A DNA stretch of 64,000 nt from Candidatus Omnitrophota bacterium (GTDB lineage: Bacteria; Omnitrophota; Gorgyraeia; JABMQH01), in contig JAQURK010000001.1 in NCBI GenBank assembly GCA_028715645.1, positions 17,806 to 81,805 on the forward strand. The letters run 5' to 3'. The translations under genes and the position numbers were made by a program. The notes beneath the pieces were generated by a model. That model worked only from the letters and a program-made list of their open reading frames with translations, did not search any database and was not told where the DNA came from. Shown one piece after another: positions 969 to 54,183 of this stretch. Each line of letters begins with the position of its first letter. Position 1 is the first letter of the stretch.

Positions 969-2942
969 TTATCCCTCCTCTTTTAAATTTGTAACCGCGC
1001 TTTTTAACAATCTGCAATAGAGGTCAAAACCCACGGCCTCTATGTAGCCGTGCTGCTCGGAACCAAGGAGGTTTCCGGCGCCCCTCAGCTGAAGGTCCTC
1101 CATGGCTATTTTAAAACCAGAACCCAGTTCTGTAAAATTCTTTATCGCAAGCAGCCGTTTTTCTATATCCTTCGTCAGGATGATATTATTCGGTATTAAA
1201 AAAAAGGCGTAGGCCTTTCGTTTGAATCTTCCTACGCGGCCCCTCAATTGATAAAGGTCGGCAAGTCCAAACATGTCCGCCCTGTTTACGATTATCGTAT
1301 TCGCGTTCGGTATGTCTATACCCGATTCTATGATGGCCGTCGATACCAGAACATCTATCCGGCCGTTTATGAAGCCGGCCATGGCGTTTTCAAGCATTTT
1401 CTCCGACATCTGTCCGTGGGCAATCTCAACGCGGGCCTCAGGCGCCAGGGACTTGATGTGGGCGGCTATTTTTTCTATTCCCAGTATGCGGTTGTGCAGA
1501 AAAAAAACCTGGCCCTTCCTTTCCAGCTCATTTCCTATGGCCTCCTTTATCAGTTTTTCGTCATATTCGCTGACATGCGTCTCGACAGGAAGTCTGTCCT
1601 GAGGAGGCGTGGCAATTATGGAAAGGTCCTTGGCGCCCATGAGAGACATGTATAAGGTCCTGGGTATCGGCGTGGCGGTTAGGGTAAGAACATCCACCAT
1701 CAGGCGCAGCCTTTTTAATTTTTCCTTGTGTCTTACTCCGAACCTCTGTTCCTCGTCGACAATCACGAGCCCCAGGTCCTTGAATTTTATGTCATCCGAA
1801 AGCAGCCTGTGGGTCCCTATCAGTATATCGACGCCGCCGTCCGAAAGGCCTTTTATGATTTCCTGCTGCTCTTTTTCCGTCCTGAACCTGCTAAGCATCC
1901 TTACCGTTACGGGATACCTGGAAAGCCGCAAGCTGAATGTATTATAATGCTGTTCCGCCAGGATCGTGGTCGGCACGAGAACCGCGGCTTGTTTATTATC
2001 CATTACCGCCTTAAACGCCGCCCTGAGGGCGACCTCTGTCTTGCCGTATCCCACATCGCCGCAGAGGAGCCTGTCCATGGGCCTTGAGGATTCCATGTCC
2101 TTTTTTACCTCTATGGTCGAGCGCCTCTGGTCCGGCGTCTCTTCATACGGAAAGGCCTCTTCAAGCTCCCGCTGCCAATCCGTGTCCTTTGAAAAACTAA
2201 AACCTGAAAGTGAGGCCCGTTTTGCCTGCAGCTCCAGAAGCTCGTATGCAAGCGTAAAAACGCCCTTCTTCGCCCTCTCTTTTACCTTCTGCCACAGGTT
2301 TGAGCCCAACTTATAAAGCCGCGGCGGCCTGCCCTCAAAGCCAATATATCTTTGAATAAGGTTGAGTTCGGTTGAAGGGACATACAGGATCTCCTTGTCC
2401 TGATATTCGATAACAAAATGGTCGAGGAAGGCCTTTCCCGTCTTAAGACGCTTTAAACCCCTGTACACGCCTATCCCGTGATCGACGTGGACCACAAGAT
2501 CGCCGGGTGAGATATCGACAAAATTATTTATGGGGATCTCTTCCGTAAATATGAGCGGCGCCCTTATCTTATGCGGCCTCAAGCGCGAGACGGGCAGGAT
2601 GATCGCGATCTGATGCTCCTGGGCATAATTTCCGGTCTGCGGGTCAAAGCCTCTTATCCTCTCGACGATGCTGCCGGAAAATTGTATCCTCACGGGCAGC
2701 TCGAAAGTGACAGGGAACACGTCAATCACTTCGCCCCTGCGGCTAAAGTCGCCTTCTTCGCACACCTGGACGGCATTCGTGTAGCCGAAGTCTATCAGCC
2801 CTTCGACAAACTTCATCACATTCACCGTCTCTTTCACATATATCTTTATACTCTCAAACATAATTGTTTCTCGTGACGGGGCAGCTCGACCGGCGGGCAG
2901 CCTTTCGGCTTGTTTTGCTGCGGCCTGCAATTGATATGTCAT
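969..2942 (-). CDS. mfd: Transcription-repair coupling factor Mfd, short form (about 650 aa)
   Basis: Has a CarD/RID-like segment (DLVVHVDHGIGVY...ILYVPSTELNLIQRY), helicase motif I (GDVGYGKTEVALRAA), motif II (DEEQRFGV) and motif VI (QLRGRVGR). The N-terminal approximately 130 aa (D1a) and the D3 and D7 domains of a 1150-aa Mfd are absent. The upstream spacer is only 200 bp. Confidence 0.75.
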   Translation of the reverse strand: MTYQLQAAAKQAERLPAGRAAPSRETIMFESIKIYVKETVNVMKFVEGLIDFGYTNAVQVCEEGDFSRRGEVIDVFPVTFELPVRIQFSGSIVERIRGFDPQTGNYAQEHQIAIILPVSRLRPHKIRAPLIFTEEIPINNFVDISPGDLVVHVDHGIGVYRGLKRLKTGKAFLDHFVIEYQDKEILYVPSTELNLIQRYIGFEGRPPRLYKLGSNLWQKVKERAKKGVFTLAYELLELQAKRASLSGFSFSKDTDWQRELEEAFPYEETPDQRRSTIEVKKDMESSRPMDRLLCGDVGYGKTEVALRAAFKAVMDNKQAAVLVPTTILAEQHYNTFSLRLSRYPVTVRMLSRFRTEKEQQEIIKGLSDGGVDILIGTHRLLSDDIKFKDLGLVIVDEEQRFGVRHKEKLKRLRLMVDVLTLTATPIPRTLYMSLMGAKDLSIIATPPQDRLPVETHVSEYDEKLIKEAIGNELERKGQVFFLHNRILGIEKIAAHIKSLAPEARVEIAHGQMSEKMLENAMAGFINGRIDVLVSTAIIESGIDIPNANTIIVNRADMFGLADLYQLRGRVGRFKRKAYAFFLIPNNIILTKDIEKRLLAIKNFTELGSGFKIAMEDLQLRGAGNLLGSEQHGYIEAVGFDLYCRLLKSAVTNLKEEG

Positions 2943-3148
2943 GTTATGTCATCCCGAATGTAGTATCTTTTTGGGTTATTCTTCGGGATTCATTCAATTG
3001 CTACGGCCGCAACGCAAAACATTACGCCTCAAGGCAGACCCGCCGGTAGCTGCCCCTTAGCTCACATTGAGAGAAATTTTTACGGTCAGCTAGTAAAGGG
3101 GTCCCCCGAGGGGTGGTGCCGAAGCGGGACGTGAAAATTTCTCCTTCA

Positions 3149-6102: not shown

Positions 6103-7389
6103 CTACTCGCGTACCTGCCCATTACCGTATATCAAATATTTATACGTTGTCAACTCTTCCAATCCTACGGGGCCCCGGGCATGCAACTTTTCTGTCGAGA
6201 TCCCTATTTCCGCGCCCATGCCGAATTGACCTCCGTCGGTAAAACGCGTGGACGCGTTCACGTATACGCAGGCGGAATCCACATTCTTTAAAAAATAATC
6301 GGCATTCTTTTGATTATCCGTAACTATCGCGTCTGAGTGCATGGAGCCATACTTTCTTATATGGGCAACGGCTTCATTCAGGTTTTCCACCACCTTAACG
6401 GACAAGATTAAATCCAAATACTCTGTGCCCCAGTCCTTTTCGGTAGCGGCCTTTATATCCTTTCCGCCGAAGGCAGGGCCGCCTATTGAGGAAATAACCG
6501 AGCGAGTCTTCTCACAGCCCCTGATCTCAACACCGGCATCCCTGAATTTTTTCAGCATGGAAGGCAGGAACCTTGACGCTATTGCCTTATGGACCAAGAG
6601 GGTCTCCATGGCATTACATACTCCGGGCCTCTGGACCTTGGCGTTAAAACATATTGATTCAGCCATGTTTAAATCAGCGTCCTCATCCACATAGGTATGG
6701 CATATCCCCTTATAATGCTTTATAACCGGGATCTTTGACCTTAAAGAAACGAAATTTATCAGCTCTTCTCCGCCCCTTGGCATGACAAGGTCTATATAAT
6801 CTTTTTCGGCAAGCAGGACTTCTATCGCCTTCCTGTCGGTTTCTTCGATCAGGATAATCGCCCTCTCGGGCAAACCGCATGATTTTCCGGCCTTGGATAG
6901 CGCGTTGTATATTGCCGTATTTGAATTTATGGCCTCACTGCCGCCCCTCAAAATAACCGCGTTTCCCGACTTAAGACATAATCCAACGCAGTCGCTTGTA
7001 ACATTCGGCCTTGATTCGTATATGATGAATATAACGCCGATCGGAACCCTGACCTTATCTATCTGGAGGCCATTAGGCCTTTTTACGGAAGATAACTTCT
7101 CGCCTACAGGGTCTTCAAGCCCGGCGATCGTCCTTAATGACCCGGCCATTTCCTTAATCCGCCTCTCATCGAGGCGCAGCCTGTCTGTCATGGCAGGAGA
7201 AAGGCCGTTTTCGCGGGCTGTTTTAAGGTCTTGCGCGTTTGCGGCAAGGATTTTTTTAGCGCCTGCCTCCAGGCCGTCCGCCATCGCCAGAAGACACTCG
7301 TTTTTCTTAGAGGTTTCAAACGCGGCCAATCCCACCGCCGCCTCCTTCGCTCTTGCCGCCAATTGAATAATCTCATCTTTCTTTACCAT
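6103..7389 (-). CDS. proA: Glutamate-5-semialdehyde dehydrogenase (gamma-glutamyl phosphate reductase)
   Basis: 428 aa, aldehyde dehydrogenase fold with typical ProA N- and C-terminal regions (VPIGVIFIIYESRPNVT...). Confidence 0.9.
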   Translation of the reverse strand: MVKKDEIIQLAARAKEAAVGLAAFETSKKNECLLAMADGLEAGAKKILAANAQDLKTARENGLSPAMTDRLRLDERRIKEMAGSLRTIAGLEDPVGEKLSSVKRPNGLQIDKVRVPIGVIFIIYESRPNVTSDCVGLCLKSGNAVILRGGSEAINSNTAIYNALSKAGKSCGLPERAIILIEETDRKAIEVLLAEKDYIDLVMPRGGEELINFVSLRSKIPVIKHYKGICHTYVDEDADLNMAESICFNAKVQRPGVCNAMETLLVHKAIASRFLPSMLKKFRDAGVEIRGCEKTRSVISSIGGPAFGGKDIKAATEKDWGTEYLDLILSVKVVENLNEAVAHIRKYGSMHSDAIVTDNQKNADYFLKNVDSACVYVNASTRFTDGGQFGMGAEIGISTEKLHARGPVGLEELTTYKYLIYGNGQVRE

Positions 7390-7397
7390 ATGATATT

Positions 7398-7426
7398 ATT
7401 ATATCAGCGCTACCTGCCCAAAACAA
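7398..7426 (-). promoter_or_regulatory. Candidate sigma70 promoter for proA, giving a nearly leaderless transcript
   Basis: Minus strand: TTGTTT (-35, 7426-7421), a 17-nt spacer, TATAAT (-10, 7403-7398), then the ATG 9 nt downstream of the -10. Confidence 0.4.
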
Positions 7427-7675
7427 GTATTTATTGCTCGGGGTATTGTTCGCGGCGCTATAATTTTTTCGCAGTGTGCTGCGGTTTACGGCTCGTTCGT
7501 ATGCAGAAATTCCCTCGTAAGAGTAGTATTAGGGCTTTTCTCGGTCAGTTTCTGCACTCACTCGCCGTAATTCCTTGCACACCTATTATGTAAATACCAG
7601 ATGAGGCGATAAAAATTCTCATGCGCCGCTCACAACACCCCTCGCAATATATACCTCTCTCTATGCAACTTGAGA

Positions 7676-7862
7676 GGGACAGCTACCAGGGGGCCTGCCT
7701 TGAGGCGTAAAGATTTTGCGAGCGAGCGTGGGAATTGAATGAAGTCCCGACATTTATACATATTATTACTTGCTTACTTGGTCGGGACGGGAAATCTTCT
7801 ACATATCAATTCCAGCGAGCCGCAAAATTAGCCGAAGGGCAGCCCCCTGGTCAAGCTGTCCC
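7676..7862. ncRNA. Candidate structured RNA element (unclassified); strand not determined
   Basis: A ~23-bp closing stem pairs GGGACAGCUACCAGGGGGCCUGCC (7676-7699) with GGCAGCCCCCUGGUCAAGCUGUCCC (7838-7862); all pairs are Watson-Crick. Inside it sit an 8-bp stem (GGAAUUGA / UCAAUUCC) and an 8-bp apical stem (GUCCCGAC / GUCGGGAC) with a 30-nt AU-rich loop. Confidence 0.35.
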
Positions 7863-7869
7863 GGCACGG

Positions 7870-7914
7870 GTTAATCTACTTTGTTAATCAGTGAGAGGCA
7901 GAGGAAGGTGGTGA
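7870..7914. repeat. Direct repeat copy A (att-like), a duplicate of the MFS gene's 3' end
   Basis: GTTAATCTACTTTGTTAATCAGtGaGAGGCAGAGGAAGGTGGTGA. It is 43/45 identical to 10886-10930, which is the stop-proximal end of the transporter gene. It is read in the same frame as a pseudo C-terminus. Confidence 0.7.
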
Positions 7915-7916
7915 GG

Positions 7917-7951
7917 ATAAAAAAATATGAAGCCACAGATTGTGGCTTCAT
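7917..7951 (-). terminator. Rho-independent terminator of the 896-aa protein gene
   Basis: Minus strand: perfect hairpin ATGAAGCCACA-atc-TGTGGCTTCAT followed by ATTTTTTTAT, directly downstream of the stop at 8011. Confidence 0.7.
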
Positions 7952-8010
7952 ATTATATGACAGGGTGTACCTAAATAGGACGTCTGTTAATACTAATAAC
8001 TCTACAAACT

Positions 8011-10701
8011 CTATTGGCCAACTTTTATCCTTACGCAATGTATGTCAGAAGTGTTGTGGTGAAAATCATCTTCCCGGAGACTCGACCAAATTATACAAAT
8101 TCTATTACCTTGAGGATTGATGGCAATTTTGGGTCCACTCGTAACGCCGCTACCCCCGAATGTATAACCAGTATTAACATACTTATAAACCGGTATAGGT
8201 ACTGAATCAAAAGTCAATCCGCCATCTTCAGAAAAATTAAAGTACATAACAGTGCTCAATAAGTTTATCGTATAGGTCCATCTCGGATCAAAAAAATCCC
8301 CTACATAAGTAACATAGATATTGCCACTATCAGCCGCAACTAAAGAGGACATGCGATAATATGCACGACTGTCACTATATCCAAAGGGATTCATTAGGCT
8401 ATCTATAATTCTGCCATAGTCATCACCTATCGCTAGACAAACGGTTTGCCATTTCCAATGTTCATAGGACTCAACAAAATGCTTTTTACTCCAAATGGTG
8501 TAGATTTCATTATTAGCGCCAATTGCGATATCTGGATCATAGTTATATCCGCCAGAATATTCGTAATATGTATCAACCACTTTTGGTGTTTCAAAGTTAA
8601 GGCCATAATCTTGTGACCTTACCAATCTGATGTCGGTAACATATTCGGGCGGCACGGGCCCCAACACGTCTACACCATATACAAATCTTCCGTCTTTGCT
8701 GCACTCAATGTTGGCCACTGCCACTGCGCTGACTGGCCGTTCAAATGTTAAACCACCATCTATTGATCTTGCACAGTCACCTGAGGCTGACACATATACT
8801 ATATTACCTGATTCTGATACGGCTAAATCTGGATACGTACCATAAGCTAATGCTGCTATTTTATCGCTGAAAGTAATCCCTCCATCAGTAGATTTAATAA
8901 AATACGCTGCATTACTACCACGCCATACAATATAGATGTTGCCACTACCATCTGTGCGAATCTTTGGGAAACTGCCTGTTTCAATAGCCTTCCTTAAAAC
9001 ATTCCATGTAATCCCTCCATCATTTGACTTATCAAAATAAATTTTGCCGTCCCTATTATTTTGCCAAACCGCATAAACTGTGCCTTCAAATATTGCTATA
9101 TCTGGCATTGTTTCAGCGGGATCATTTGTCACTTGAATATTTGGGCTTATATCAATGTTTGGTCTGAGTCGTTGGTAATAAATACGCCCACTCGCGTATC
9201 CGGAATTGCCTGCCGCATCTTTGGTCTCTACAGTAATTGTATTTTCTCCTTCTACAAAATCGCCAACGTAACAACTCCAGGTTGTAGTATCAGGATAACT
9301 TACGGGTCTTACATATAAAGATGGGGCTGTAACTGTAATCGGCGCATTGAGCTCTCTTGCCCCTCCTATAATTTGGCCATCTAAGCTGGTAGAATAATTT
9401 CCGACGGTAACAGTTGGTGGGGTTGTATCCAGGATTATGGTATCGCTAAAGACCTGCGACCAGTTACCGGCCCTGTCAGAGAATTTCACAAATACAGTTT
9501 TTTGGCTATCGCCGGTATATAAACCCCAACTTGCCGCTGTTGAATAAGGTCTGGACGTAGACCAATTTACGCCGTCATTTGAAAATTTCATATCCGCCAG
9601 GCCTGAGCCGCCTTGGTTATCTTGCGCGGCCAAATTTAATATAACTGATACTGAATTTGTGTATTGGGCGTCATTGTTTATTTTTATTGAGCCGGTAGGG
9701 GGCGTTACATCAGAAGATGCTATACTCCAGGTCCCTTTCAGCACATAGCCGCTATAGGCGTTCTGTTTATCGCGTGCAAATAGATACATGTTCTTTTGTC
9801 CTAAAAATGCCGCTTTATATGCAACATTCCACTTCATGGTAAGGGTAGTACCGCTTCTTGAAACGGTTGTTTTTGAGCAATCAAGCTTGCCCCGTGTCAT
9901 CTGGATGATATTGCTTGAACCAGGGGCATAGCCGCCTGTCCAGCCTACACCATCACTTGCGTATAATTTGTTCTCTGGCTGATTGTAGTATACAGCGAAG
10001 CCATTTGGAAAGGTTGCGGTGGTATTTACCAAAAATAGGGCATGGGCTATATCCTGGTAGCCGTTTTGGTCACTGTAGGTAGCGGTGAATTCAACTGCTT
10101 GCTCCGCAATGCTTGAGCCGCTTGAAGGGGTAATTGTGCCGACAGTGGGTGGTTGATTTAACATAATATTCCATGTCCCTTTTAGTATATAATCACTTTT
10201 AGCGCCCTGTTTATCGCGTGCAAATAGATACATGTTCTTTTGTCCTAAAAATGCCGCTTTATATGTAACATTCCACTTTATAGTAAGGGTGGCGCCGCTT
10301 CTAGAAATGGTCGTATTTAAGCAATTAAGCGAGCCTTGTGTATTGCTGATTATGTTGTTAGAACCGGGGGCAAACCCGCCTGTCCATGCTGTTCCATTGT
10401 CACTTCGTAGGTATAATTTGTTCGTTGGCTGATCATAGTATGCAAGGAAGCAGTTTGTATTGCTTGTGTAGGTGGTATTTACAAAAAATAGGGCATGCTG
10501 TATGTCCTGATAGCCGTTTTGGTCTATATAGGTAGTGGTAAATTCAACTGTTGTGTTAGCAATGCTTGAGCTATTAGAAGGCGTGATTGTGCCGACAGTG
10601 GGCGCGTAGTTCAAAGCCGCCGCATAGCAAATACCAGACAATCCCGCGTAAATACTAAAGCTAACAACAGCAAGCAAAATCTTAAATTTTAAGTTTTTCA
10701 T
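8011..10701 (-). CDS. Secreted multidomain protein: signal peptide, two tandem ~150-aa repeats, Ig-like middle region, C-terminal BNR/Asp-box beta-propeller
   Basis: N-terminal signal peptide. Repeats over about aa 33-184 and 185-333 share conserved blocks (PTVGTITPS, YKAAFLGQKNMYLFARDKQ). The C-terminal half has four Asp-box motifs (SNDGGITW, STDGGITF, SIDGGLTF, SEDGGLTF). No sialidase RIP motif was seen. Confidence 0.8.
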   Translation of the reverse strand: MKNLKFKILLAVVSFSIYAGLSGICYAAALNYAPTVGTITPSNSSSIANTTVEFTTTYIDQNGYQDIQHALFFVNTTYTSNTNCFLAYYDQPTNKLYLRSDNGTAWTGGFAPGSNNIISNTQGSLNCLNTTISRSGATLTIKWNVTYKAAFLGQKNMYLFARDKQGAKSDYILKGTWNIMLNQPPTVGTITPSSGSSIAEQAVEFTATYSDQNGYQDIAHALFLVNTTATFPNGFAVYYNQPENKLYASDGVGWTGGYAPGSSNIIQMTRGKLDCSKTTVSRSGTTLTMKWNVAYKAAFLGQKNMYLFARDKQNAYSGYVLKGTWSIASSDVTPPTGSIKINNDAQYTNSVSVILNLAAQDNQGGSGLADMKFSNDGVNWSTSRPYSTAASWGLYTGDSQKTVFVKFSDRAGNWSQVFSDTIILDTTPPTVTVGNYSTSLDGQIIGGARELNAPITVTAPSLYVRPVSYPDTTTWSCYVGDFVEGENTITVETKDAAGNSGYASGRIYYQRLRPNIDISPNIQVTNDPAETMPDIAIFEGTVYAVWQNNRDGKIYFDKSNDGGITWNVLRKAIETGSFPKIRTDGSGNIYIVWRGSNAAYFIKSTDGGITFSDKIAALAYGTYPDLAVSESGNIVYVSASGDCARSIDGGLTFERPVSAVAVANIECSKDGRFVYGVDVLGPVPPEYVTDIRLVRSQDYGLNFETPKVVDTYYEYSGGYNYDPDIAIGANNEIYTIWSKKHFVESYEHWKWQTVCLAIGDDYGRIIDSLMNPFGYSDSRAYYRMSSLVAADSGNIYVTYVGDFFDPRWTYTINLLSTVMYFNFSEDGGLTFDSVPIPVYKYVNTGYTFGGSGVTSGPKIAINPQGNRICIIWSSLREDDFHHNTSDIHCVRIKVGQ

Positions 10702-10803
10702 TGTAGTTCTCCTTGTTTTTATATATCTTTTTAAACTAATTTATTACCAACACAAAAAAAATTAATCTGTACTCTTAAGTCTATCTCTAGCCTTCTGTAA
10801 GAG

Positions 10804-10831
10804 AGTATAGCACATAATTTGTATTTGTCAA
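10804..10831 (-). promoter_or_regulatory. Consensus sigma70 promoter for the 896-aa protein gene
   Basis: Minus strand: TTGACA (10831-10826), a 16-nt spacer, TATACT (10809-10804). AAGGAGAA sits 7 nt before the ATG at 10701. Confidence 0.5.
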
Positions 10832-10885
10832 GTAAATCTTTCTAACTTTTTTAAAGTATAACACCTGTGCGCTATTTACCCACTC

Positions 10886-10930
10886 GTTAATCTACTTTGT
10901 TAATCAGCGGGAGGCAGAGGAAGGTGGTGA
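10886..10930. repeat. Direct repeat copy B (att-like), lying at the 3' end of the MFS transporter CDS
   Basis: GTTAATCTACTTTGTTAATCAGcGgGAGGCAGAGGAAGGTGGTGA. It encodes the last residues ...TTFLCLPLINKVD* of ORF 10887..11900. Confidence 0.7.
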
Positions 10931-11900
10931 AGGCGGAGGCGATGATGAGGCCTTTTAGGCCGATTATTGGTAAAAGGTAGGCGCCCGAAAGATTGCTGGA
11001 CACAAGGGCAAGGTTGCTTATGCTGGCGAGGAACGCGAAAGAAGTGGCCTCAAGGCCATTCACCGTCTTTCGCGCCATTAGGTCCATTATCATAAGGAAG
11101 ATAAACATGCCCATGAGGTTATACAATATGTCGTAGAGAATGGCGGTTACCGGCGTATAATAAAGGTAGCTAATAGTTGTCACGGCGCCTAAAAAAACTG
11201 AAAAATAAAGCCACTTTTTAAGATTGATCCGCTGGCTGAATTTGTAATAAAGCAAAGAGCCCACTATTCCGAAAACAGTGCTTATGGTGCCGAGGGTCCC
11301 TATCCATACCTTCCCCCATTTAAACACATCCCTCTGTATGAAAAATAGCGGCGTGCCGAATGAAGGCGAATATTTGTAAAGAAATATAAATATACCGACG
11401 ATCAGTATTTTTTTATCGGCAAATATTTTTTTCAGGTCGGCAAAAAAAGAAGAGCTGATTTTCCGGCCCCCATCGTCTTCCCTGTAAAAATGAGCGATTA
11501 GCCCTACTATGACATAGACAGGCACAAGGCATAAAAAGGCCTCCCTGTACCCCCATCTTTGAGCGATATATCCGCCGCCTATGCCTGTCAGCATCACCGC
11601 CACTGAAATAGATATCCATTGGACGCTCTGTATCTTTCCGGTTGTCTTATTGCGCTTACCCTCCACGCACATGATCCCGTCGGTGGCGACGTCCCTGAAC
11701 GCGGCATTCGCCGAATTAAGGAGCATAAGCCCGATTAGAAGGGCGATAGGCAAAAAAGCAAGCCCAAGCACAAGGACTATAATTATATCCAGCGCCAGGG
11801 AAATAAAGATCCATATTTTTTTATTAAAATAGTTATCTATGACATAGCCGATCGCCGGTTTTATCAGCCACGCGAAGGTGGTAATACTGGAGATGACCAT
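10887..11900 (-). CDS. Multi-pass membrane transporter (MFS/BT1-like)
   Basis: About 10 hydrophobic segments, Gly-rich loops, transporter-like. The N-terminus may extend upstream through a non-ATG start, as there is no in-frame stop directly upstream. Confidence 0.6.
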   Translation of the reverse strand: MVISSITTFAWLIKPAIGYVIDNYFNKKIWIFISLALDIIIVLVLGLAFLPIALLIGLMLLNSANAAFRDVATDGIMCVEGKRNKTTGKIQSVQWISISVAVMLTGIGGGYIAQRWGYREAFLCLVPVYVIVGLIAHFYREDDGGRKISSSFFADLKKIFADKKILIVGIFIFLYKYSPSFGTPLFFIQRDVFKWGKVWIGTLGTISTVFGIVGSLLYYKFSQRINLKKWLYFSVFLGAVTTISYLYYTPVTAILYDILYNLMGMFIFLMIMDLMARKTVNGLEATSFAFLASISNLALVSSNLSGAYLLPIIGLKGLIIASAFTTFLCLPLINKVD

Positions 11901-12024
11901 GATCTTTTCGGGCGAGAAATTGAGGGTTTCCTTGAGGTAATAAAAAAGGCCTTGCGAGGGAAGGCCTTCGATGCCCTGTGTAAAATATACGACGCTGCTT
12001 AAGGCATAAATCCAGAACGATCTC

Positions 12025-12369
12025 TTATTCAGTCTTGGGCGCCTCCTGTTTTACCGGCGGGATAGCGATTGGCAAAGCGGCCTTCGTTTCAGCGCCGCCA
12101 ATGGCCTTTTTAACACGCTGGGTCTCCATGAGAGACCTGGATCTGTGAGTTGAAAGCGCGGCAAGGCTCAGGCAGGTAAGTAAAAAGATGACCGCGCTCA
12201 CAGAGGTCGCCTTCTGCAAAAATTTCGCGGCCGATGTCCCAAAAAATGTCTGGGTTGAGCTGATCCCGAAGGTATCGCTTAATCCCCCTCCCCTTCCGGC
12301 CTGAAGCAGTATGACAAGGATTAAAACCACAGAAACTATTACGTGAATTACAATAAGTAACGCGTACAT
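12025..12369 (-). CDS. secG: Preprotein translocase subunit SecG
   Basis: Two TM segments and the LLQAGRGGGLSDTFG motif typical of SecG. It lies downstream of tpiA, the classical position. Confidence 0.85.
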   Translation of the reverse strand: MYALLIVIHVIVSVVLILVILLQAGRGGGLSDTFGISSTQTFFGTSAAKFLQKATSVSAVIFLLTCLSLAALSTHRSRSLMETQRVKKAIGGAETKAALPIAIPPVKQEAPKTE

Positions 12370-12395
12370 TTCCTTTTCACCTCTTTTAATTAAGA

Positions 12396-13226
12396 TTACG
12401 CCCGTTTATCCGCGGCCCGCCTTACTATCTCGGTAAAGGTATCGACTTTAAGGCTGGCGCCGCCGACGAGCGCGCCATCAACGTCAGGTTTATCAAGCAG
12501 TGACGAGATATTCTCGGGCGTCACGCTGCCGCCGTATTGTATCCTGACAGCGGAGGCGGCCTCCTTCGAATACTGTCTGCCTATAATTTTCCTTATAAAG
12601 GCATGGACCTCTTCGGCCTGTTCCGGCGTAGCGGTCTTGCCCGTGCCTATAGCCCAAACGGGCTCATAGGCGAAAATCGTGTTTAAAATCTCTTTTTCGG
12701 TAATTGCCTTAAGGGCGCCCTGGACGTGGTCCTCTACCACTTTAAAGGTATCACCGGCCTCCCTTTCAGCCAGCCTTTCGCCAACGCATACTATCGGCGT
12801 AAGCCCGCCGGCAAGGGCGCGTTTCAATTTTTTATTCACCGAGTCATTGGTCTCATTGAAAAATTGCCTTCTCTCGGAATGCCCTATGATCACGTAATCG
12901 GCGCCCGCATCCTTGAGCATTGAAACGGATATCTCTCCTGTATATGCGCCTTTTTCCTCCCAAAAAAGATCCTGGCCGCCTGTCTTTATAGATGAACCCT
13001 TAAGCGCATTCGAGGTTTCGCTTAATGACGTAAACGGCGGGCATACCACCATATCAACACCTTTTACGCCTGACAGGTTCTTTTTAAGCCCGTTAACGAG
13101 TTCAAACGCCTCTTTAATGGTCTTGTTCATTTTCCAATTCCCGGCAATAATGGGTTTTCTCATAAAATTTTCGAAGAAAATTTTATCCCGAGCTGCCATT
13201 GCTTTCATCAGGCAGCGAGGGATCAA
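12396..13226 (-). CDS. tpiA: Triose-phosphate isomerase
   Basis: IIAGNWKMN, IIGHSERR and AYEPVWAIGTG motifs. The true start is probably the internal MRKPIIAGNWKMN near 13160. Confidence 0.9.
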   Translation of the reverse strand: MIPRCLMKAMAARDKIFFENFMRKPIIAGNWKMNKTIKEAFELVNGLKKNLSGVKGVDMVVCPPFTSLSETSNALKGSSIKTGGQDLFWEEKGAYTGEISVSMLKDAGADYVIIGHSERRQFFNETNDSVNKKLKRALAGGLTPIVCVGERLAEREAGDTFKVVEDHVQGALKAITEKEILNTIFAYEPVWAIGTGKTATPEQAEEVHAFIRKIIGRQYSKEAASAVRIQYGGSVTPENISSLLDKPDVDGALVGGASLKVDTFTEIVRRAADKRA

Positions 13227-14407
13227 CTATCCTGTAACGCGGCGATCCCCGGGAGGGTTTTCCCTTCCAGATATTCGAGCGAAGCGCCGCCGCCCGTCGA
13301 GATATGCGACATCTTTGCCTCCAGGCCAAATTTTGCTATAGCTGCCGCGGTATCTCCGCCGCCTATTATCGTGGTAGCCTTCAGGCCTGAGATAAACTTC
13401 GCGATCTCCCTTGAGCCTTTATCAAAGGGGGGCATCTCAAAGACGCCAAGCGGGCCGTTCCATATGATTGTCTTGGCGTTTTTTAGTTCTTCTTCAAATA
13501 ATTTTACCGTCTTAGGGCCGATATCAAGCCCCATCAGGCCGGCAGGGATAGCGGCATCCTTTGTAACCTCTACTCTGGCGGAGGGCTCCAATTTATCCGC
13601 GGCAACATGATCTACAGGTAAAAGGATCTTTACCGAACTTTTCTTCGCGTCCAGAAGGATCTCGCTTGCCAGCCCTGCCTTGTCCGCCTCCAGTTTCGAT
13701 TTCCCTATCTCTATGCCCTTCGCCTTAAGTAAGGTATATGCCATGCCGCCGCCAATCAGGATGGCATCCACCTTTTTCATAAGATTTTTGATGACCTCTA
13801 TCTTATCAGAGACCTTCGCCCCCCCAAGGATGGCGACATAGGGTTTCGCGGGATTGCTGACCGCCTTCTCAAAATACTCTATTTCTTTCTGGACAAGGAA
13901 TCCGGAGACGGAAGCGAGATACCTGGTAACGCCTTCTGTGGAGGCGTGGGCCCTGTGCGCCGTCCCAAAGGCGTCGTTTACATAGACGTCGCCTAGCGAG
14001 GCCAGTGACTTGGCAAAACCGGGGTCGTTTGCCTCTTCTTCCTTATGAACCCGCACGTTTTCAAGCATTACCACATCGCCGGGCTTCATTGCGCCGGTGA
14101 TTTTTTTTACCTCATCGCCCACGCAATCAGGCGCCATTTTTACGGGCCTCCCGATCAATTCGCTTAACCGCTGGGCAACCGGCCTCAAACTGAACTTGGG
14201 CTCCGGCCCTCCCTTCGGCCTGCCCAGATGGCTCATGAGGATCACCTTCGCCCTCTGGCCAATCGCGTATTCTATTGTCGGAACCGCTGCCCTTATCCGC
14301 GCGTCATCTGTGATATTCAGATTCTCATCCTGCGGAACATTAAAATCCACGCGCATGATGACCCTTTTATTTTTTATGTCAACATCCCTTATGCTTTTTT
14401 TATTCAT
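13223..14407 (-). CDS. pgk: Phosphoglycerate kinase
   Basis: 394 aa, PGK family signatures throughout (RVDFNVP..., GGGASLE...). Confidence 0.95.
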   Translation of the reverse strand: MNKKSIRDVDIKNKRVIMRVDFNVPQDENLNITDDARIRAAVPTIEYAIGQRAKVILMSHLGRPKGGPEPKFSLRPVAQRLSELIGRPVKMAPDCVGDEVKKITGAMKPGDVVMLENVRVHKEEEANDPGFAKSLASLGDVYVNDAFGTAHRAHASTEGVTRYLASVSGFLVQKEIEYFEKAVSNPAKPYVAILGGAKVSDKIEVIKNLMKKVDAILIGGGMAYTLLKAKGIEIGKSKLEADKAGLASEILLDAKKSSVKILLPVDHVAADKLEPSARVEVTKDAAIPAGLMGLDIGPKTVKLFEEELKNAKTIIWNGPLGVFEMPPFDKGSREIAKFISGLKATTIIGGGDTAAAIAKFGLEAKMSHISTGGGASLEYLEGKTLPGIAALQDS

Positions 14408-15563: not shown

Positions 15564-16559
15564 TTATTTAGCTTCCCTCAATGTTTTTGCCGCCAATTCA
15601 GGCGGTGTTGGATTTATATAAAAACCTGTCCCCCATTCGAAACCCGCCACTCTGGTAATCCTTGGCATGATCTCGATGTGCCAGTGATAATCATCCCTTG
15701 CCAGATCATCGAGCGGAGTACTGTGCAGTATATAGTTATAAGCGGGATCATTAAGAAGTTTCTTGATCCTGGAAAGGGTGTCTTTGAATATGGACGCCAG
15801 ATCATTAATCCCCTCGACCTGGATTTGAGGAAAATCCGAGACGTGTTCTTTCGGAATTATCCAGGTCTCATAAGGGAACCTTGAAACAAACGGGGTAAAG
15901 GACAAAAAGCTCTTGTTCTCCGTAATCGTCAATTCCTTTTCCTGCAGCTCCTGCCTTATCATGTCGCAGTAAACGCATCTTTCCCGGTAACCGAAATATT
16001 TCTCGGCGCCCTCTATCTCGCCTACAACCCGCTTTGGCGCGAATGGGAGGGCGATGAGCTGTGAATGAGGGTGGTCGAGCGAGGCGCCGGCGGTAAAACC
16101 GTAATTCTTGAAGATCAGGATATACTTAAACCGCTTGTCTTTTCTAAGATCCAGGCTCCTGTCCCTGTATGCCCAAAGCATGTCCCTGATTTGAGATTCG
16201 TCCCTGTCCGCTATCTCAGACTCATGGTTTGGCGTATCTATGATAACCTCATGCGCCCCGACGCCGTTCATCAAGTCAAAAACGCCGATGCCGACCCTGT
16301 TCAAGTCGCCTTCTATCTGAAGGGCGGGGAATTTGTTTGGCACCACCCTGACATCCCATCCCGGGGTATTCTTTTCCCTTTTGTGCTTGCTATAGGCCAT
16401 GATCTCAGGCGGCGTCATCTTCTCATTGCCGTTGCAAAACGCGCAGACGCCGGCCTTCTTTGGCGAAGGCACGGACTTATAAAAGTCCGGGCCCTTTGGG
16501 CTGTCATTGTTTATTATGATCCATCTTCCCGTTATCGGGTCTCTTCTTAATTCAGGCAT
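15564..16559 (-). CDS. Galactose-1-phosphate uridylyltransferase-like HIT-family nucleotidyltransferase (paralog 1)
   Basis: MPELRRDPITGRWIII, CAFCNGNE...TPPE zinc site, and the HPH-type motif DHPHSQL typical of GalT. Confidence 0.7.
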   Translation of the reverse strand: MPELRRDPITGRWIIINNDSPKGPDFYKSVPSPKKAGVCAFCNGNEKMTPPEIMAYSKHKREKNTPGWDVRVVPNKFPALQIEGDLNRVGIGVFDLMNGVGAHEVIIDTPNHESEIADRDESQIRDMLWAYRDRSLDLRKDKRFKYILIFKNYGFTAGASLDHPHSQLIALPFAPKRVVGEIEGAEKYFGYRERCVYCDMIRQELQEKELTITENKSFLSFTPFVSRFPYETWIIPKEHVSDFPQIQVEGINDLASIFKDTLSRIKKLLNDPAYNYILHSTPLDDLARDDYHWHIEIMPRITRVAGFEWGTGFYINPTPPELAAKTLREAK

Positions 16560-16563
16560 TTTA

Positions 16564-17577
16564 TTATATCTCCAGTTCCTTCAGATATTTGGCAGCTTCT
16601 TCCGGGGGCGTAGGATTGATATAAACGCCGGTCCCCCATTCAAAACCCGCTACACGGGTTAACTTCGGGATAATCTCTATGTGCCAATGGTAGTCGTCCT
16701 CTATAGTCCTCCAGTACCCGGACTTTCTGCCTACCCTGAAGGGGGCCGTATGGATAATGTAATTATAGGGCGGGTCGCCAAGCGCGACCTTTAATTTTGA
16801 GAGGGTGATCTTAAGAACCCTTGCCAGGTCAAGCCTTGAGGCCTCTGGAAGCCGCGGAAAATCGCAGCTGTGGTCTTTTGGCAATATCCATACCTCAAAC
16901 GGAAACCTTGAGGCGAACGGGGCAATGGCCACAAACCCGTCCATTTCCAATATTATTCTGTCCTGAGCGTCCAATTCCTGTTTTAATATATCGCAAAAAA
17001 CGCATCTGTCCTTATAGTCAAAATACCGCTTGGCGCCGGCAAGCTCTTCCTTTACAAGTTTCGGATTTACAGGCGTGGCTATCAGCTGTGAGCGCGAATG
17101 CCTGTACATGGATTCGCCGTAATTCTTGAATATAAGCACATATTTTAACCTTGTGTCCTTTTCCAGATCGGCGATCCTGTTGATGTATGTGTCTATCATC
17201 TGTTTGATCTGCTCAGGCGGCAATTCGGCAAGATGCGCGATATGTTTAGGCGTTTCAATGACTATCTCATGCGCCCCGACGCCGTTCATAAGATCATAAA
17301 GCCCCTTACCGCGGCGGTTCAATTTGCCTTCTATGCGAAGTATGGGCGCTATGCTGGGCACGACACGGACGTTCCACCCGGGCTGATTTGGCTTTGTGCC
17401 CGGATTGCGTATCGCGAAAATTTCAGGAGGCGTCTTGTTCTCGCTGCCTTCGCAAAAAGGACAACCCTCATCCGGTACCTGTTCCTTCTTGGACAAAAAA
17501 TCTTCAGGCCTTTTAGCGCGTTCCGCTGCTATGATGACCCATCTGCCTGTTATCGGGTCCCTTCTTAATTGCGGCAT
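16564..17577 (-). CDS. Galactose-1-phosphate uridylyltransferase-like HIT-family nucleotidyltransferase (paralog 2)
   Basis: MPQLRRDPITGRWVII, CPFCEGSE...TPPE. Collinear with the downstream paralog, diverged tandem duplicate. Confidence 0.7.
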   Translation of the reverse strand: MPQLRRDPITGRWVIIAAERAKRPEDFLSKKEQVPDEGCPFCEGSENKTPPEIFAIRNPGTKPNQPGWNVRVVPSIAPILRIEGKLNRRGKGLYDLMNGVGAHEIVIETPKHIAHLAELPPEQIKQMIDTYINRIADLEKDTRLKYVLIFKNYGESMYRHSRSQLIATPVNPKLVKEELAGAKRYFDYKDRCVFCDILKQELDAQDRIILEMDGFVAIAPFASRFPFEVWILPKDHSCDFPRLPEASRLDLARVLKITLSKLKVALGDPPYNYIIHTAPFRVGRKSGYWRTIEDDYHWHIEIIPKLTRVAGFEWGTGVYINPTPPEEAAKYLKELEI

Positions 17578-22424: not shown

Positions 22425-23096
22425 TTATTCCGATGCGCGGAGCGCATGCCTAATCTTTTTCAAATCCTCCCATACCAGGCGTTTATCGCCCGGATTGCGC
22501 AAAAGATACGCGGGATGGAATGTAGGCATGACCTTTATATCATCCATTTCGTAAAATCTGCCCCTTAAGGCGCTGATAGGCGTTGCGCTGTTAAGCAAAA
22601 ATTGCGACGCAAATTTTCCAAGGCAGCATACGACCTTCGGATGAATGGATTCAATTTGCTCAAGGAGAAAATGCGAACAGGCCTCTATCTCATCGGGAAG
22701 AGGGCACCTGTTACCGGGCGGCCTGCATTTTAAAACATTGGCGATATAGACGTCTTCCCTTCGCATACCTATGGCCTCGATCATCTTTGTCAGGAGTTGC
22801 CCTGCCCTTCCGACAAAAGGTAAACCCTGCAGGTCTTCATCCGCCCCTGGCGCCTCTCCCACAAACATCAATCCCGCATGCGGCGAGCCGGAGCCAAAGA
22901 CCATATGAGTGCGCTTTTTATAAAGCGGACATGCCTTGCATGCCTCCGCCGCCTTTTTTATCCCTATCAATCCCTTTCTATCCTTATGCCGAATGTAGTT
23001 ATCCTGTGAAGAAGTTCTTCGCACAAATATCTCATTGATGCCGGCCAGCTTATCTGTCTCCAGATAGCCCTTTATGGACGCGATTATGCTTCGCAT
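22425..23096 (-). CDS. Uracil-DNA glycosylase, family 4
   Basis: GEAPGADEDLQGLPFVGRAGQLL motif and the HPAYLLRNP C-terminal motif. Confidence 0.85.
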   Translation of the reverse strand: MRSIIASIKGYLETDKLAGINEIFVRRTSSQDNYIRHKDRKGLIGIKKAAEACKACPLYKKRTHMVFGSGSPHAGLMFVGEAPGADEDLQGLPFVGRAGQLLTKMIEAIGMRREDVYIANVLKCRPPGNRCPLPDEIEACSHFLLEQIESIHPKVVCCLGKFASQFLLNSATPISALRGRFYEMDDIKVMPTFHPAYLLRNPGDKRLVWEDLKKIRHALRASE

Positions 23097-24241
23097 ACCA
23101 CAAACCTGGCGATTGCCGCCGCGGGATTTTCTTTTTTTATCTTCCTTATATTTTCTTTCATTTGTTTTAACAGGTTCGCGTCATGAAAGATGTCTTTAAT
23201 GATTTTTACCGCCTCTTGAGCCTCGTTTATCCTGAATGCCGCGCCGTTCTTAATAAGAAGGCGGCAATTCCTGCTTTCCTGCCCCGGTATCGGAGAAATT
23301 ATTATAAGCGGCAGCTCCTTTGCCACCGCCTCTGAAGATATCAGCCCTCCGGCCTTTGTTATAGAGACATCGGAAACGCTCATTAGTTCGTCGATGTAAT
23401 CTATGAAACCAAACGTATTCAAGCGGGTCGTTGGTCTTTGGCCCCTTCGGGAGGCTTCGCTCTCGTTGGTCGTTAGTTTATCGAGTCGTGCGCGCAATGC
23501 GGCGTTGTGGCCGCAGACAATTAATATCTGAAGCTGGAGTCCGCTTTTAATCAGGGCCTTGACAAGGGCCTCAATTGGCCCCACGCCAAAACCCCCGCCT
23601 GTTATAAGAACGGTGAACATATCGGGAGATATATTTAGTTTATCGCACACGGCCTTTTTTTCTTTTTGTTCATAAAATTTTGGATGTATCGGCATACCCA
23701 GCACATGTATGTTTTCGACAGAAACGCCCCACTTTTTTATCAGGTCCTGACGGGTCTCATTAAAACTTACGCAGAAGTGATCTGTCTCCCGTGAAAACCA
23801 GAATGAATGCATCCTGAAATCGGTAACACATGTTATAAGCATTGTCTTAAACCTGTTTTCTTTTTTAAGGCGCGAGATCACCTCTCCTGTCAGGAAATGA
23901 GTTGATATTACGATATCAGGATTATACTCAAGTAAAAGATCCTCAAGCGCCCTTGCGTTGTTCTTATTAACAAGGCGCCTGGCTATCCTGACAAAAGGAA
24001 AGAGCTGTCTGATATCAAGACAATAGTAAAAAAAACCCCAGATCGCGGGCATACGCAGCACTACGAATAGATAGGTCCTCGCATATGATCGCTTAAAGAA
24101 GTTTGTTGTATAATGGAGAGCGTCGATTATCTTTATCTGGGTATCCGGCGGGGATAAGCAATCAAGGGCATTCTTGATGGCAAAGGCGGCGCGCTTATGC
24201 CCTTCCCCCGCTGTTGCATAGACAATTAAGATCTTTTTCAT
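23084..24241 (-). CDS. Glycosyltransferase family 28-like (MGDG/diglucosyl-DAG synthase-like)
   Basis: N-terminal MKKILIVYATAGEGHKRAA motif and a C-terminal GT-B domain. Fits a monogalactosyl/glucosyl-diacylglycerol synthase fold. Confidence 0.6.
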   Translation of the reverse strand: MKKILIVYATAGEGHKRAAFAIKNALDCLSPPDTQIKIIDALHYTTNFFKRSYARTYLFVVLRMPAIWGFFYYCLDIRQLFPFVRIARRLVNKNNARALEDLLLEYNPDIVISTHFLTGEVISRLKKENRFKTMLITCVTDFRMHSFWFSRETDHFCVSFNETRQDLIKKWGVSVENIHVLGMPIHPKFYEQKEKKAVCDKLNISPDMFTVLITGGGFGVGPIEALVKALIKSGLQLQILIVCGHNAALRARLDKLTTNESEASRRGQRPTTRLNTFGFIDYIDELMSVSDVSITKAGGLISSEAVAKELPLIIISPIPGQESRNCRLLIKNGAAFRINEAQEAVKIIKDIFHDANLLKQMKENIRKIKKENPAAAIARFVVCEA

Positions 24242-24263
24242 CCTTATTTATCCTTATGTATCC

Positions 24264-24833
24264 CTATATATCCTTATCTTTCTTTATTATCTCCTCTACC
24301 GCTTCTTTCAGGTCCTTTTTAATAATATCCGGTTTTATAGGCCAGTCCTTTGTCTCATCCTCTGTCTTTGTCATGCCGCTTAAAACCAGGACCGTCCTTA
24401 AGCCTGCCCGGTTTCCCGCCTCGATGTCCGTCCTTTTGTCGCCTATCAGATAGGTTTTGGCAAGATTGACATCAAGGTCTTTTATCGCCGGCATAAGCAG
24501 CCCTGTCTTTGGTTTTCTGCAATCGCAGTTATCAGCCGCTGTATGGACACAGTACCTCACCGTCCATATCCTGCCGCCGGCAAGCCTTATCCGCTCAAGC
24601 ATCTTTTCGGTGATTTCTTCCAATCGTTTATCCGTATATATCCCTTTTCCGACGCCGGCCTGGTTTGAGATTACCGCTATCTTCACCCCTTTATCAGTGA
24701 GGTATTTAATCGCCTCCAGGGCGCCGGATAAAAAATGGAAGTCCTCCCAACGGGTGACATAACCTTCCCTGGTAATCTCGCCGGGATCCCTGTTGATAAC
24801 GCCATCCCTGTCGATGAATATCAGTTTATCCAT
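24264..24833 (-). CDS. gmhB: D-glycero-D-manno-heptose 1,7-bisphosphate phosphatase (HAD-IIIA)
   Basis: LIFIDRDGVIN HAD motif I, ~190 aa, GmhB/HisB-N family. Sits in a heptosyltransferase-containing cluster. Confidence 0.8.
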   Translation of the reverse strand: MDKLIFIDRDGVINRDPGEITREGYVTRWEDFHFLSGALEAIKYLTDKGVKIAVISNQAGVGKGIYTDKRLEEITEKMLERIRLAGGRIWTVRYCVHTAADNCDCRKPKTGLLMPAIKDLDVNLAKTYLIGDKRTDIEAGNRAGLRTVLVLSGMTKTEDETKDWPIKPDIIKKDLKEAVEEIIKKDKDI

Positions 24834-28258: not shown

Positions 28259-29106
28259 TAACCGATACTCTTCGCCATAGCCATTTGTTCCAGCATCGCT
28301 GACACCCTCTTGTCGTAGGTGTGCGATGAGGCCGCGAGGTCTTTTCCGGCCGCGGCCACAGCCCTTCTTTCATTATTATTTTCCAGATAGCGCTTAATCA
28401 TGAGAAATATTTCTTGAGGCGAGCTGTATACCGCCACATTTTTTTTATCCTCAAAAAGACCGTCAAACCCGTTTCCCTCCACATGGTTTGTAAGCAGCAT
28501 TGCCCCGCAGGCCATTACCTCAAATACCCGCATATTTATATCGTTTGCTATGGAATAATTAAACCCTATCTTTGCCTTGCTGTATATCTCTGATATTTGC
28601 GTAAAGGGAGCGTTGCCTATATAGGAACCCGGAAACCTTTCCCTTATCTCCTGGAGAAGCAGCTTTCTCGGCAATCCCCCGTCGTTTCCAATAAAGGCGA
28701 TGTCGATTGTTCTTTCCGTGCCCAAATCGCGGTGCAACTCGGAGTCGCAGGCGTGGGGCAGCCAAGAAACTTTATCTCCGCAGACGGCCTTGAGTTTAAG
28801 GTAACCGTCGTATTGCGCGCAAAAGACATGGTCATATAGTGGCGCCACGCCATTTATGGCCAAAAAGGGCTTTTTTAGATGGACGTCGCTCGCGTAAAAG
28901 AAAGAGGGCTTAAGCCTGCCATGCGGGATATCGTATTTATAATCGCCGTCATCTATCCTTAGATAGCAGTCAAACCGGGGCTCGATGCGGCCCGAATCCT
29001 TTAACCAGAAATGAGTCACGGCGTGGCCGGCCTTTACAAACGCTTTTTTATAATATTCGCCCAGGGTATCTTCCCGCAACTTATCATATATTATCGCGAT
29101 ATTCAT
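28258..29106 (-). CDS. CgeB-family / GT1-like glycosyltransferase
   Basis: C-terminal GT1-like region (FEVMACGAMLLTN) with a CgeB/DUF3880-like N-terminus. Confidence 0.55.
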   Translation of the reverse strand: MNIAIIYDKLREDTLGEYYKKAFVKAGHAVTHFWLKDSGRIEPRFDCYLRIDDGDYKYDIPHGRLKPSFFYASDVHLKKPFLAINGVAPLYDHVFCAQYDGYLKLKAVCGDKVSWLPHACDSELHRDLGTERTIDIAFIGNDGGLPRKLLLQEIRERFPGSYIGNAPFTQISEIYSKAKIGFNYSIANDINMRVFEVMACGAMLLTNHVEGNGFDGLFEDKKNVAVYSSPQEIFLMIKRYLENNNERRAVAAAGKDLAASSHTYDKRVSAMLEQMAMAKSIG

Positions 29107-29135
29107 AAACTTATATATATCCTTATCTATCCCTA

Positions 29136-29495
29136 TTATTCCCTATTATTCCTTATTTCATACCCCTTTTCCGTTTCAATCAAAATTTTCGCGTCTAACC
29201 CAAATCCCCTGACCCATTTTCTCGTTTGTTCTTTTGTTACAATTACCGTTTCCAATCCTTCCAGTATCCGGTGCCATAAAAAATAAAAAAACAGGTACGG
29301 GTTAAAAAAAATTCTTGGGATCGCGTGAATCCTCAAGCCGTCGGGCCTGGTAATGACGCCCAGGACCCTTTTATTTACTGTGCCCTTGATGATAATATCT
29401 ACGGATAAATTGTTTTTTAACAGCGCCGAGGAAAGTTCCTTCGCGCCGCGCCAGCCAACCTCAGAAATGATCAGGGCCTTTTTACATCCAGTCAT
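29136..29495 (-). CDS. Hypothetical protein
   Basis: 119-aa ORF packed between two sugar enzymes on the same strand. No recognised motif. Confidence 0.35.
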   Translation of the reverse strand: MTGCKKALIISEVGWRGAKELSSALLKNNLSVDIIIKGTVNKRVLGVITRPDGLRIHAIPRIFFNPYLFFYFLWHRILEGLETVIVTKEQTRKWVRGFGLDAKILIETEKGYEIRNNRE

Positions 29496-34391: not shown

Positions 34392-35111
34392 CTATTTTTT
34401 ATACAACCCCAGTCTGAGCCGCAAGACCATTATAACGGATTCTATAAAAACCCCGAGCGACATCTTCGAGCGACCCTTGCGCCTTTCAACGAATACGATC
34501 GGTATCTCCTTAATTTTAAAACCCTTCTTAAAAATCCTGTATTTCATCTCAACCAAAAAAGAGTATCCATCCGATTCAATACTATCCAGGGAAATGGCGC
34601 TCAAGGCCCTTTTTCTATAGCATATAAATCCGCTTGTGACATCATTCACAGGCAAGCCTGTAATAAGGCGGGCGTATGTATTTGCGCCTGAACTTAGTAT
34701 GATCCGCCACAGCGGCCAATTCAGGACACTGATCCCTCCTTCCAGATACCGCGAACCAATAACAACATCGCTTTCTTCAGCGGCCTTCAAAAAATCTGGT
34801 GTGTAGGAGGGGTCATGGGAAAAATCTGCGTCCATCCCGATGATGAAATCAGCCCCCTGGGCGATGGCCCGTTTAAACCCTTCCACGTAAGCGGCCCCTA
34901 ATCCCCTTTTAGCCATTCTGCGCACAATCTCGACCCTGGGCAATCTTTTGCCGATATCCTCTACCACCTGCCATGTCCCATCTGGAGAATTATCATCCAC
35001 CACAATTATCCTGATATTTAAATTAAGGGCCTCTATCCTCTGGATTAATCCGACGATATTTTCCTTTTCGTTATAGGTAGGGATCACTACGATTATTTTT
35101 TCATTTTTCAT
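34392..35111 (-). CDS. GT2 polyprenyl-phosphate glycosyltransferase (DPM synthase-like)
   Basis: IIVVIPTYNEKENI...IIVVDDNSPDGT and a DAD motif. Confidence 0.8.
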   Translation of the reverse strand: MKNEKIIVVIPTYNEKENIVGLIQRIEALNLNIRIIVVDDNSPDGTWQVVEDIGKRLPRVEIVRRMAKRGLGAAYVEGFKRAIAQGADFIIGMDADFSHDPSYTPDFLKAAEESDVVIGSRYLEGGISVLNWPLWRIILSSGANTYARLITGLPVNDVTSGFICYRKRALSAISLDSIESDGYSFLVEMKYRIFKKGFKIKEIPIVFVERRKGRSKMSLGVFIESVIMVLRLRLGLYKK

Positions 35112-53118: not shown

Positions 53119-53138
53119 AAATACCTATACCTCTTTAG

Positions 53139-54179: not shown

Positions 54180-54183
54180 TTTT

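Follow-up and report, generated by a model that had tools for sequence, protein, structure and literature searches.

The window analysed here, a stretch of 64,000 nucleotides (nt) from a Candidatus Omnitrophota bacterium, carries on its minus strand a gene for an 896-amino-acid (aa) protein that is secreted and modular, and whose design is fairly ordinary for a surface protein. We consider it reasonably probable that this is a secreted or cell-surface stalk-and-head protein, in which immunoglobulin (Ig)-like domains form the stalk and a ligand-binding beta-propeller forms the head. Having its own promoter, ribosome-binding site and terminator, the gene makes up a self-contained transcription unit. 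The open reading frame (ORF) and the parts of its product are as follows:

8011..10701, minus strand: complete ORF, 896 aa plus stop, ATG start
10621..10701, minus strand: Sec-type signal peptide, residues 1 to ~27, read by eye
10153..10617, minus strand: module A, residues 29-183, modelled as an enlarged Ig/PKD-like beta-sandwich, of a family without a Pfam or NCBIfam model
9703..10152, minus strand: module B, residues 184-333, second copy of the module A domain, 69% aa identical
9403..9702, minus strand: putative Ig-like domain 3, residues 334-433, of OmpL47 / Big_3_3 / Big_7 type
9112..9402, minus strand: putative Ig-like domain 4, residues 434-530, weakly matched by Big_13 and Glucodextran_B-like profiles
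8014..9111, minus strand: residues 531-896, seven-bladed beta-propeller of Asp-box (BNR) type; Asp-boxes: four canonical, two degenerate

In NCBI, the ORF product has an exact counterpart called 'MAG: sialidase family protein [Candidatus Omnitrophica bacterium]', encoded on a 125-kb contig. Its 90%-identity cluster holds one member from one contig, and an exact look-up returned no contigs on record that encode the protein. The intact ORF and the signal peptide, which was read by eye, bear out the original prediction, an earlier note made from the DNA letters alone, of an 896-aa secreted modular protein. The signal peptide runs from MKNLKFK through a hydrophobic core to CYA/A at about residue 27; no canonical lipobox was seen in it by eye, and the alignment of many relatives begins at residue 1-8. 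Domain boundaries were derived from 120 relatives. The whole protein gave no match to PDB sequences at E <= 1.

The C-terminal domain is a closed seven-bladed Asp-box propeller. Four canonical Asp-boxes, the number claimed before, were located at residues 559 (SNDGGITW), 604 (STDGGITF), 646 (SIDGGLTF) and 824 (SEDGGLTF). The fourth and fifth Asp-box columns of the family are occupied in this protein by degenerate versions, SQDYGLNF at 696 and GDDYGRII at ~759. The AlphaFold2 (AF2) model of the domain contains 25 strands, with a predicted local distance difference test (pLDDT) score of 86.3 and a predicted TM-score (pTM) of 0.90, and the Asp-boxes do form a propeller, one with seven blades. A homology search with residues 531-896 recovered 35 proteins at 24-40% local identity (BLASTP, best E = 4e-25). 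All but two of them carry a precomputed PF13088 (BNR_2) annotation, and some are named sialidase family. We then examined a family alignment of 36 sequences, which are 20-41% identical to the 896-aa protein over the whole propeller length. Its conserved columns comprise only the blade framework P..IA, VW.D and IY..S.DGG.TW, with seven strand-W positions and six Asp-box positions, and no Arg, Glu or Tyr is conserved outside this framework among the 36 sequences.

A Foldseek search with the propeller returned PL25, GH74, PLL-type lectins, GH93, sialidases and sortilin, at TM 0.4-0.63 and 10-17% identity. PL25 ulvan lyase (5uam), GH74 xyloglucanase (2cn2) and BNR_2-type proteins share with the present domain a propeller with S-x-D-G-G-x-T-W/F turns at blade spacing, and PLL-family lectins (5c9o/6rfz) match it in fold only. 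Solved Asp-box propellers reach no more than the 10-17% identity given above, and the catalytic residues of those enzymes were not identified in the 896-aa protein. Moreover, the propeller is here fused behind four Ig-like domains, unlike the named Asp-box propellers. With GH33 exo-alpha-sialidases the protein has Asp-box repeats, a beta-propeller and secretion in common; those enzymes, however, have six blades and a RIP/Arg-triad, whereas this propeller has seven blades and neither signature. The R-[IVL]-P motif occurs nowhere in the 896-aa protein, in agreement with the earlier claim that no sialidase RIP motif is present. An identity as a GH33 sialidase was rejected on the number of blades, the lack of RIP and the lack of conserved Arg/Tyr/Glu outside the framework, and 'sialidase family protein', as NCBI calls it, is probably a misleading name.

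The propeller could still be a glycan-active enzyme in a wider sense, that is, sialidase-, GH74- or PL25/PL42-like, acting on prey, host or environmental glycans, with the Ig-like domains as spacers or carbohydrate-binding accessories. We regard this as possible, though on the unlikely side. The NCBI name and the PF13088 annotation of homologs speak for it, as do a weak match to the NCBIfam model NF045728 (F510_1955 glycosylhydrolase, E = 1.7e-7, residues 558-677 only), the presence of PL25 ulvan lyase, GH74 xyloglucanases, GH93 and sialidases among the top Foldseek matches, and relatives that fuse the N-terminal modules to glucoamylase-type and pectate-lyase-like domains. Nevertheless, the NCBIfam match scored 30.8 bits against a cutoff of 175, and in a Pfam scan the 896-aa protein itself showed no PF13088 at E <= 1; only PF02012 (BNR) appeared, with 17.7 bits where the cutoff is 27. 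The structural matches are distant, the blade number differs from the six of GH33 or GH93, and the enzyme-type signatures described above are missing from the 36 family members.

At the N-terminus, the two ~150-aa tandem repeats that had been predicted were recovered: residues ~29-183 and 180-333 are identical at 104/153 aa (BLASTP, E = 3e-72). Overall, modules A and B share 69% aa identity and 75% nt identity, and their DNA aligns in three blocks, collinear and 75-83% identical, in which the copies lie 444, 450 and 453 nt apart. Residues 29-333 found no family match in Pfam or NCBIfam. When 55 diverse members of the module family were scanned singly against Pfam, no family was hit in more than 2/55 (best E = 0.007), and a module profile searched against PDB sequences gave only matches with E >= 0.35. 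Pfam, NCBIfam and PDB sequences thus do not assign the N-terminal repeats to any well-known domain. The AF2 model of the module (~155 aa, 13 strands, pLDDT 97.8) indicates an enlarged Ig/PKD-like beta-sandwich without a close solved relative or a catalogued family, so that the 'unknown fold' of the original prediction can be replaced by a modelled one. PKD and Big domains are smaller, the module here being roughly 50% larger.

HMMER, run in full over 1.84 billion representative proteins, found the module in 4154 proteins at E <= 1e-3, 2736 at E <= 1e-10 and 850 at E <= 1e-30. The first 120 relatives are mostly named Omnitrophota, and 81 of them contain full modules. Copy number does vary, as had been claimed: these 81 relatives have 1-6 copies each, and up to 13 module stretches were matched per protein in the wider HMMER matches. 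In 65 of the 81 proteins the module array is N-terminal, its start falling among residues 1-100; another 10 have it at the C-terminus and the remaining 6 internally. Partner domains include the SpvB/TcaC N-terminal domain, glucoamylase-type, FG-GAP/VCBS, discoidin, lipase-like and pectate-lyase-like beta-helix domains, dockerin, PKD and other Ig types, a diversity consistent with a common module for stalk formation or display. Of 188 modules of the family, 100 have a Cys pair, and its presence in about half of the modules fits an extracytoplasmic location; the first Cys of the pair is missing from module B of the 896-aa protein. These results show that the module family is abundant, widespread in Omnitrophota and uncatalogued, and that it sits mostly directly after the signal peptide, followed by varied C-terminal heads.

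The arrangement resembles the stalks of fibrillar adhesins and surface enzymes (Big_x, PKD, OmpL47-type), which likewise form tandem arrays of variable copy number adjoining a functional head. Big and PKD stalk domains belong to catalogued families, unlike the N-terminal module here, for which Pfam and NCBIfam gave no match. The middle region, predicted earlier to be Ig-like, agrees with this arrangement in type. Residues 347-501 gave weak Big_3_3, Big_13 and OmpL47-type profile matches in Pfam and NCBIfam, and residues 334-530 recur as a tandem module in many relatives with precomputed Big_7, Big_13 or Big_3_3 annotations. Against PDB, the middle region gave only chance matches to antibody light chains. 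From these profiles, residues 334-530 can be read as two putative bacterial Ig-like domains of conventional type.

In the favoured stalk-and-head reading, the four sandwich domains would act as a stalk, and possibly as an anchoring module, projecting the propeller outside the cell. The propeller would be the ligand-binding head, most likely for glycans, as its fold class suggests, and not a sialidase as judged from its residues. Set beside the criteria for fibrillar adhesin-like proteins, a stalk and a terminal head are present and an anchor motif was not recognised by eye. We infer surface attachment, as against release or periplasmic retention. Several points weigh against this reading. The signal peptide was judged by eye, and inspection by eye recognised no cell-wall, outer-membrane, type IX secretion system (T9SS), LPXTG or autotransporter anchor. 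The choice of a binding head follows from the absence of catalytic-type residues in an alignment of repeated blades, which may be out of register. Furthermore, GH74, PL25 and PL42 supply several examples of enzymes with a structurally similar Asp-box propeller of seven blades.

The fact that no outer-membrane or cell-wall sorting signal was recognised would also suit a periplasmic or envelope-assembly scaffold comparable to the seven-bladed YncE or Ycf48, with the Ig-like modules making protein-protein contacts in the envelope. We consider such a role improbable. Core envelope machinery is not typically encoded by a strain-specific, inserted gene such as this one, and the modules of the protein are shared with SpvB/TcaC toxin-complex, discoidin, dockerin and hydrolase heads, which are typically extracellular.

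The evidence for insertion comes from the genomic context. All large ORFs of the window lie on the minus strand, and the gene is located between a BT1/MFS transporter gene (10887..11900) and proA (6103..7389). On the upstream side lie gap, pgk, tpiA and secG, and on the downstream side nadD, rsfS, argS and a gene for an mfd-like helicase. The mfd-like gene, argS, nadD, proA, the BT1/MFS transporter gene, secG and gap were checked against Pfam, and rsfS, tpiA and pgk were named from synteny. We scanned species-representative genomes and obtained 31 Omnitrophota-type loci with an ortholog of the transporter. None of these 31 loci contains a gene for the 896-aa protein, and BLASTN of the whole cassette against them gave no match. 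The three closest loci (L001, L002 and L031; transporter identity 71-77%, proA identity 70-78%) have the order pgk-tpiA-secG-transporter-proA-nadD-rsfS. In these loci the spacer between transporter and proA measures 70-160 nt, versus ~3.5 kb in the window. The following elements were identified around the ORF:

10804..10831, minus strand: sigma-70-type promoter, TTGACA-16-TATACT, 11/12 matches, TG extension
10709-10714, minus strand: ribosome-binding site AAGGAG, 7 nt before the ATG
7924..7954, minus strand: intrinsic terminator, 14-bp stem then a T-run
10881..10930, minus strand: direct repeat copy 1, native: the final 14 codons and the stop codon at the 3' end of the BT1/MFS transporter gene
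7865..7914, minus strand: direct repeat copy 2, 46/50 identical, an orphan transporter 3' end just after the terminator

The two 50-nt copies delimit an insertion of 3016 nt and are the only such long-range repeat in the window. The GC content at third codon positions (GC3) of the gene is 0.372, versus 0.50-0.61 in ~30 neighbouring housekeeping genes. Taken together, the promoter and terminator of its own, the direct repeat, the GC3 and the short spacers in relatives support acquisition by insertion. The original prediction of a horizontally acquired cassette is in line with this, since the gene is inserted relative to conserved synteny and its GC3 is atypical. The insertion would have occurred at the 3' end of the transporter gene, leaving an att-like duplication of 50 nt. 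Integrase-mediated 3'-end insertions (attL/attR, including integrase-less cis-mobilisable elements) likewise have a direct repeat that duplicates the target 3' end, leaves the gene intact and flanks foreign-looking DNA. The 3-kb unit differs from such integrative elements in that its cargo is a single gene, and a recombinase is encoded neither within it nor by the seven neighbouring genes that the Pfam check covered.

This account of the insertion meets objections of its own. Low GC3 also occurs elsewhere in the window (35-45 kb and 52-54 kb), and composition alone is no proof of foreign origin. The att-like interpretation of the direct repeat stands without a recombinase, and another duplicative repair process could explain the repeat. 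The 31 loci and a metagenome scan yielded no empty-site or second-copy evidence of mobility; the scan, which used the 22-nt core common to both direct-repeat copies, gave one match, to an unrelated contig without similarity to the window. Two other mobile structures were considered. An integron cassette was rejected, as neither an attC-like site nor a nearby integrase is present, the only hairpins being the terminator and a repeated 190-nt element. A transposon target-site duplication is unlikely, 50 nt being far above the typical length, with no terminal inverted repeats.

Two side observations concern composition and the insertion site. The gene blocks at 35000-45300 and 52100-54200 have a GC content of 0.32-0.41 and a GC3 of 0.30-0.48, below the housekeeping part, and may be accessory or horizontally acquired clusters. 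In one of the 31 loci (L012, JBFMBZ010000040.1), a 606-aa gene at 12134-13954 lies two genes downstream of the BT1/MFS transporter ortholog; its product has a weak GH99-like match at the N-terminus and one ~150-aa module at the C-terminus. This weak hint may mean that the region downstream of the transporter is a variable spot for module-bearing genes, although the synteny of this locus differs anyway.

We then turned to the history of the two modules. Modules A and B are mutually closest, at 69% identity versus 51-54% to any other sampled module. P0017 is nearest among the full-length relatives, with 42% identity at residues 174-895, and has one module where the 896-aa protein has two; its genomic context, a 6-kb contig, was uninformative. 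The closeness of A and B to each other and the single module of this relative indicate that the duplication or homogenisation is lineage-specific. Within the modules, one short patch is almost identical:

9763..9834, minus strand: patch in module B, 71/72 nt identical to 10207-10278, offset 444
10207..10278, minus strand: patch in module A, partner of 9763-9834

The longest exact run in the patch is 59 nt. The original prediction had reported a 71/72-nt stretch, which exists, and had placed it at 9761-9832 versus 10208-10279; those positions imply an offset of 447, at which only 18/72 nt match. By the Nei-Gojobori method, the synonymous divergence (dS) between the modules is 0.59 and the nonsynonymous divergence (dN) is 0.23, giving dN/dS = 0.39, which points to purifying selection. 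Outside the patch dS rises to 0.77, and inside it (residues 138-166 of module A) dS is 0.06. The duplication is thus not recent, contrary to what had been proposed, and the near-identity is local. In the simplest reading of this history, the tandem duplication is old, purifying selection has acted on the copies, and one short, recent gene-conversion tract came later.

The original prediction had envisaged a recently duplicated array that expands and contracts under diversifying selection for adhesion or glycan recognition. Module copy number does differ among family members, and the 71/72-nt patch shows that the copies still recombine. However, a dS of 0.6-0.8 between the copies does not suit a recent origin, their dN/dS of 0.39 runs counter to diversifying selection, and the part that varies as a head is the propeller, not the repeats. 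We therefore consider this scenario very improbable.

Omnitrophota have been described as uncultured nanobacteria and proposed to be epibionts, parasites or predators, and their large extracellular proteins as having few annotated domains and adhesion-type domains (PMC10066038). This lifestyle literature is compatible with the stalk-and-head reading and is no proof of it. The locus is a well-defined example of such large, poorly annotated extracellular proteins, and cataloguing the ~150-aa module would better annotate thousands of metagenomic proteins. The synteny comparison illustrates how surface-protein genes are gained at strain level inside a conserved housekeeping array. A broader idea, which we put forward as speculative and rather doubtful, is that the module is an Omnitrophota-enriched common display or anchoring stalk for interchangeable heads (toxin-complex, hydrolase, lectin, propeller), whose genes move as single-gene, integrase-less cassettes into gene 3' ends with an att-like duplication of ~50 nt. 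If true, Omnitrophota would thereby have a surface repertoire, modular and mobile, with which to interact with hosts or prey. New here are the uncatalogued, abundant Ig-like family, the seven-bladed propeller that is not sialidase-like and the single-gene, repeat-flanked insertion; the protein was already public, and Ig-type stalks with propellers, intragenic duplication and gene conversion are all common and mechanistically unsurprising.

Next to the insertion lies a further element:

7675..7868, no strand assigned: long hairpin of ~190 nt, abutting direct repeat copy 2, with a second copy at 2872-3057

The hairpin has arms of ~70-85 nt, and its second copy separates argS from the mfd-like helicase gene. 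A comparison of the two over 196 nt gave 72% identity, and the RNA folding energy is -88 kcal/mol (z = -6). Compensatory double changes were found in 6/44 shared hairpin pairs, and the loop diverges. An Rfam search of 7000-12000 gave no match, leaving the hairpin without a catalogued RNA; it could be a miniature inverted-repeat transposable element (MITE)-like or repetitive extragenic palindromic (REP)-like element, or a structured RNA. Between the hairpin and the conserved proA promoter, ~245 nt of non-coding DNA (7430-7675) has no counterpart in the spacers of the three closest loci and no Rfam match.

Elsewhere in the window, tandem 10-nt units occur at 24226-24303, 29095-29162 and 32595-32652, and also at 22952-22992 and 32250-32290. 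They lie directly upstream of, and extend into, the start codons of several minus-strand genes, with 3-5 units per site. On the minus strand the units read ATAAGGAATA, ATAGGGAATA and ATAAGGATAT, placing a Shine-Dalgarno-like AGGGA or AAGGA every 10 nt, and they may be translation-initiation or regulatory repeats. Finally, two adjacent paralogous genes (331 and 337 aa) at 15564-17577 share DNA blocks that are 72-73% identical at a spacing of 1018 nt, indicating a tandem gene duplication.

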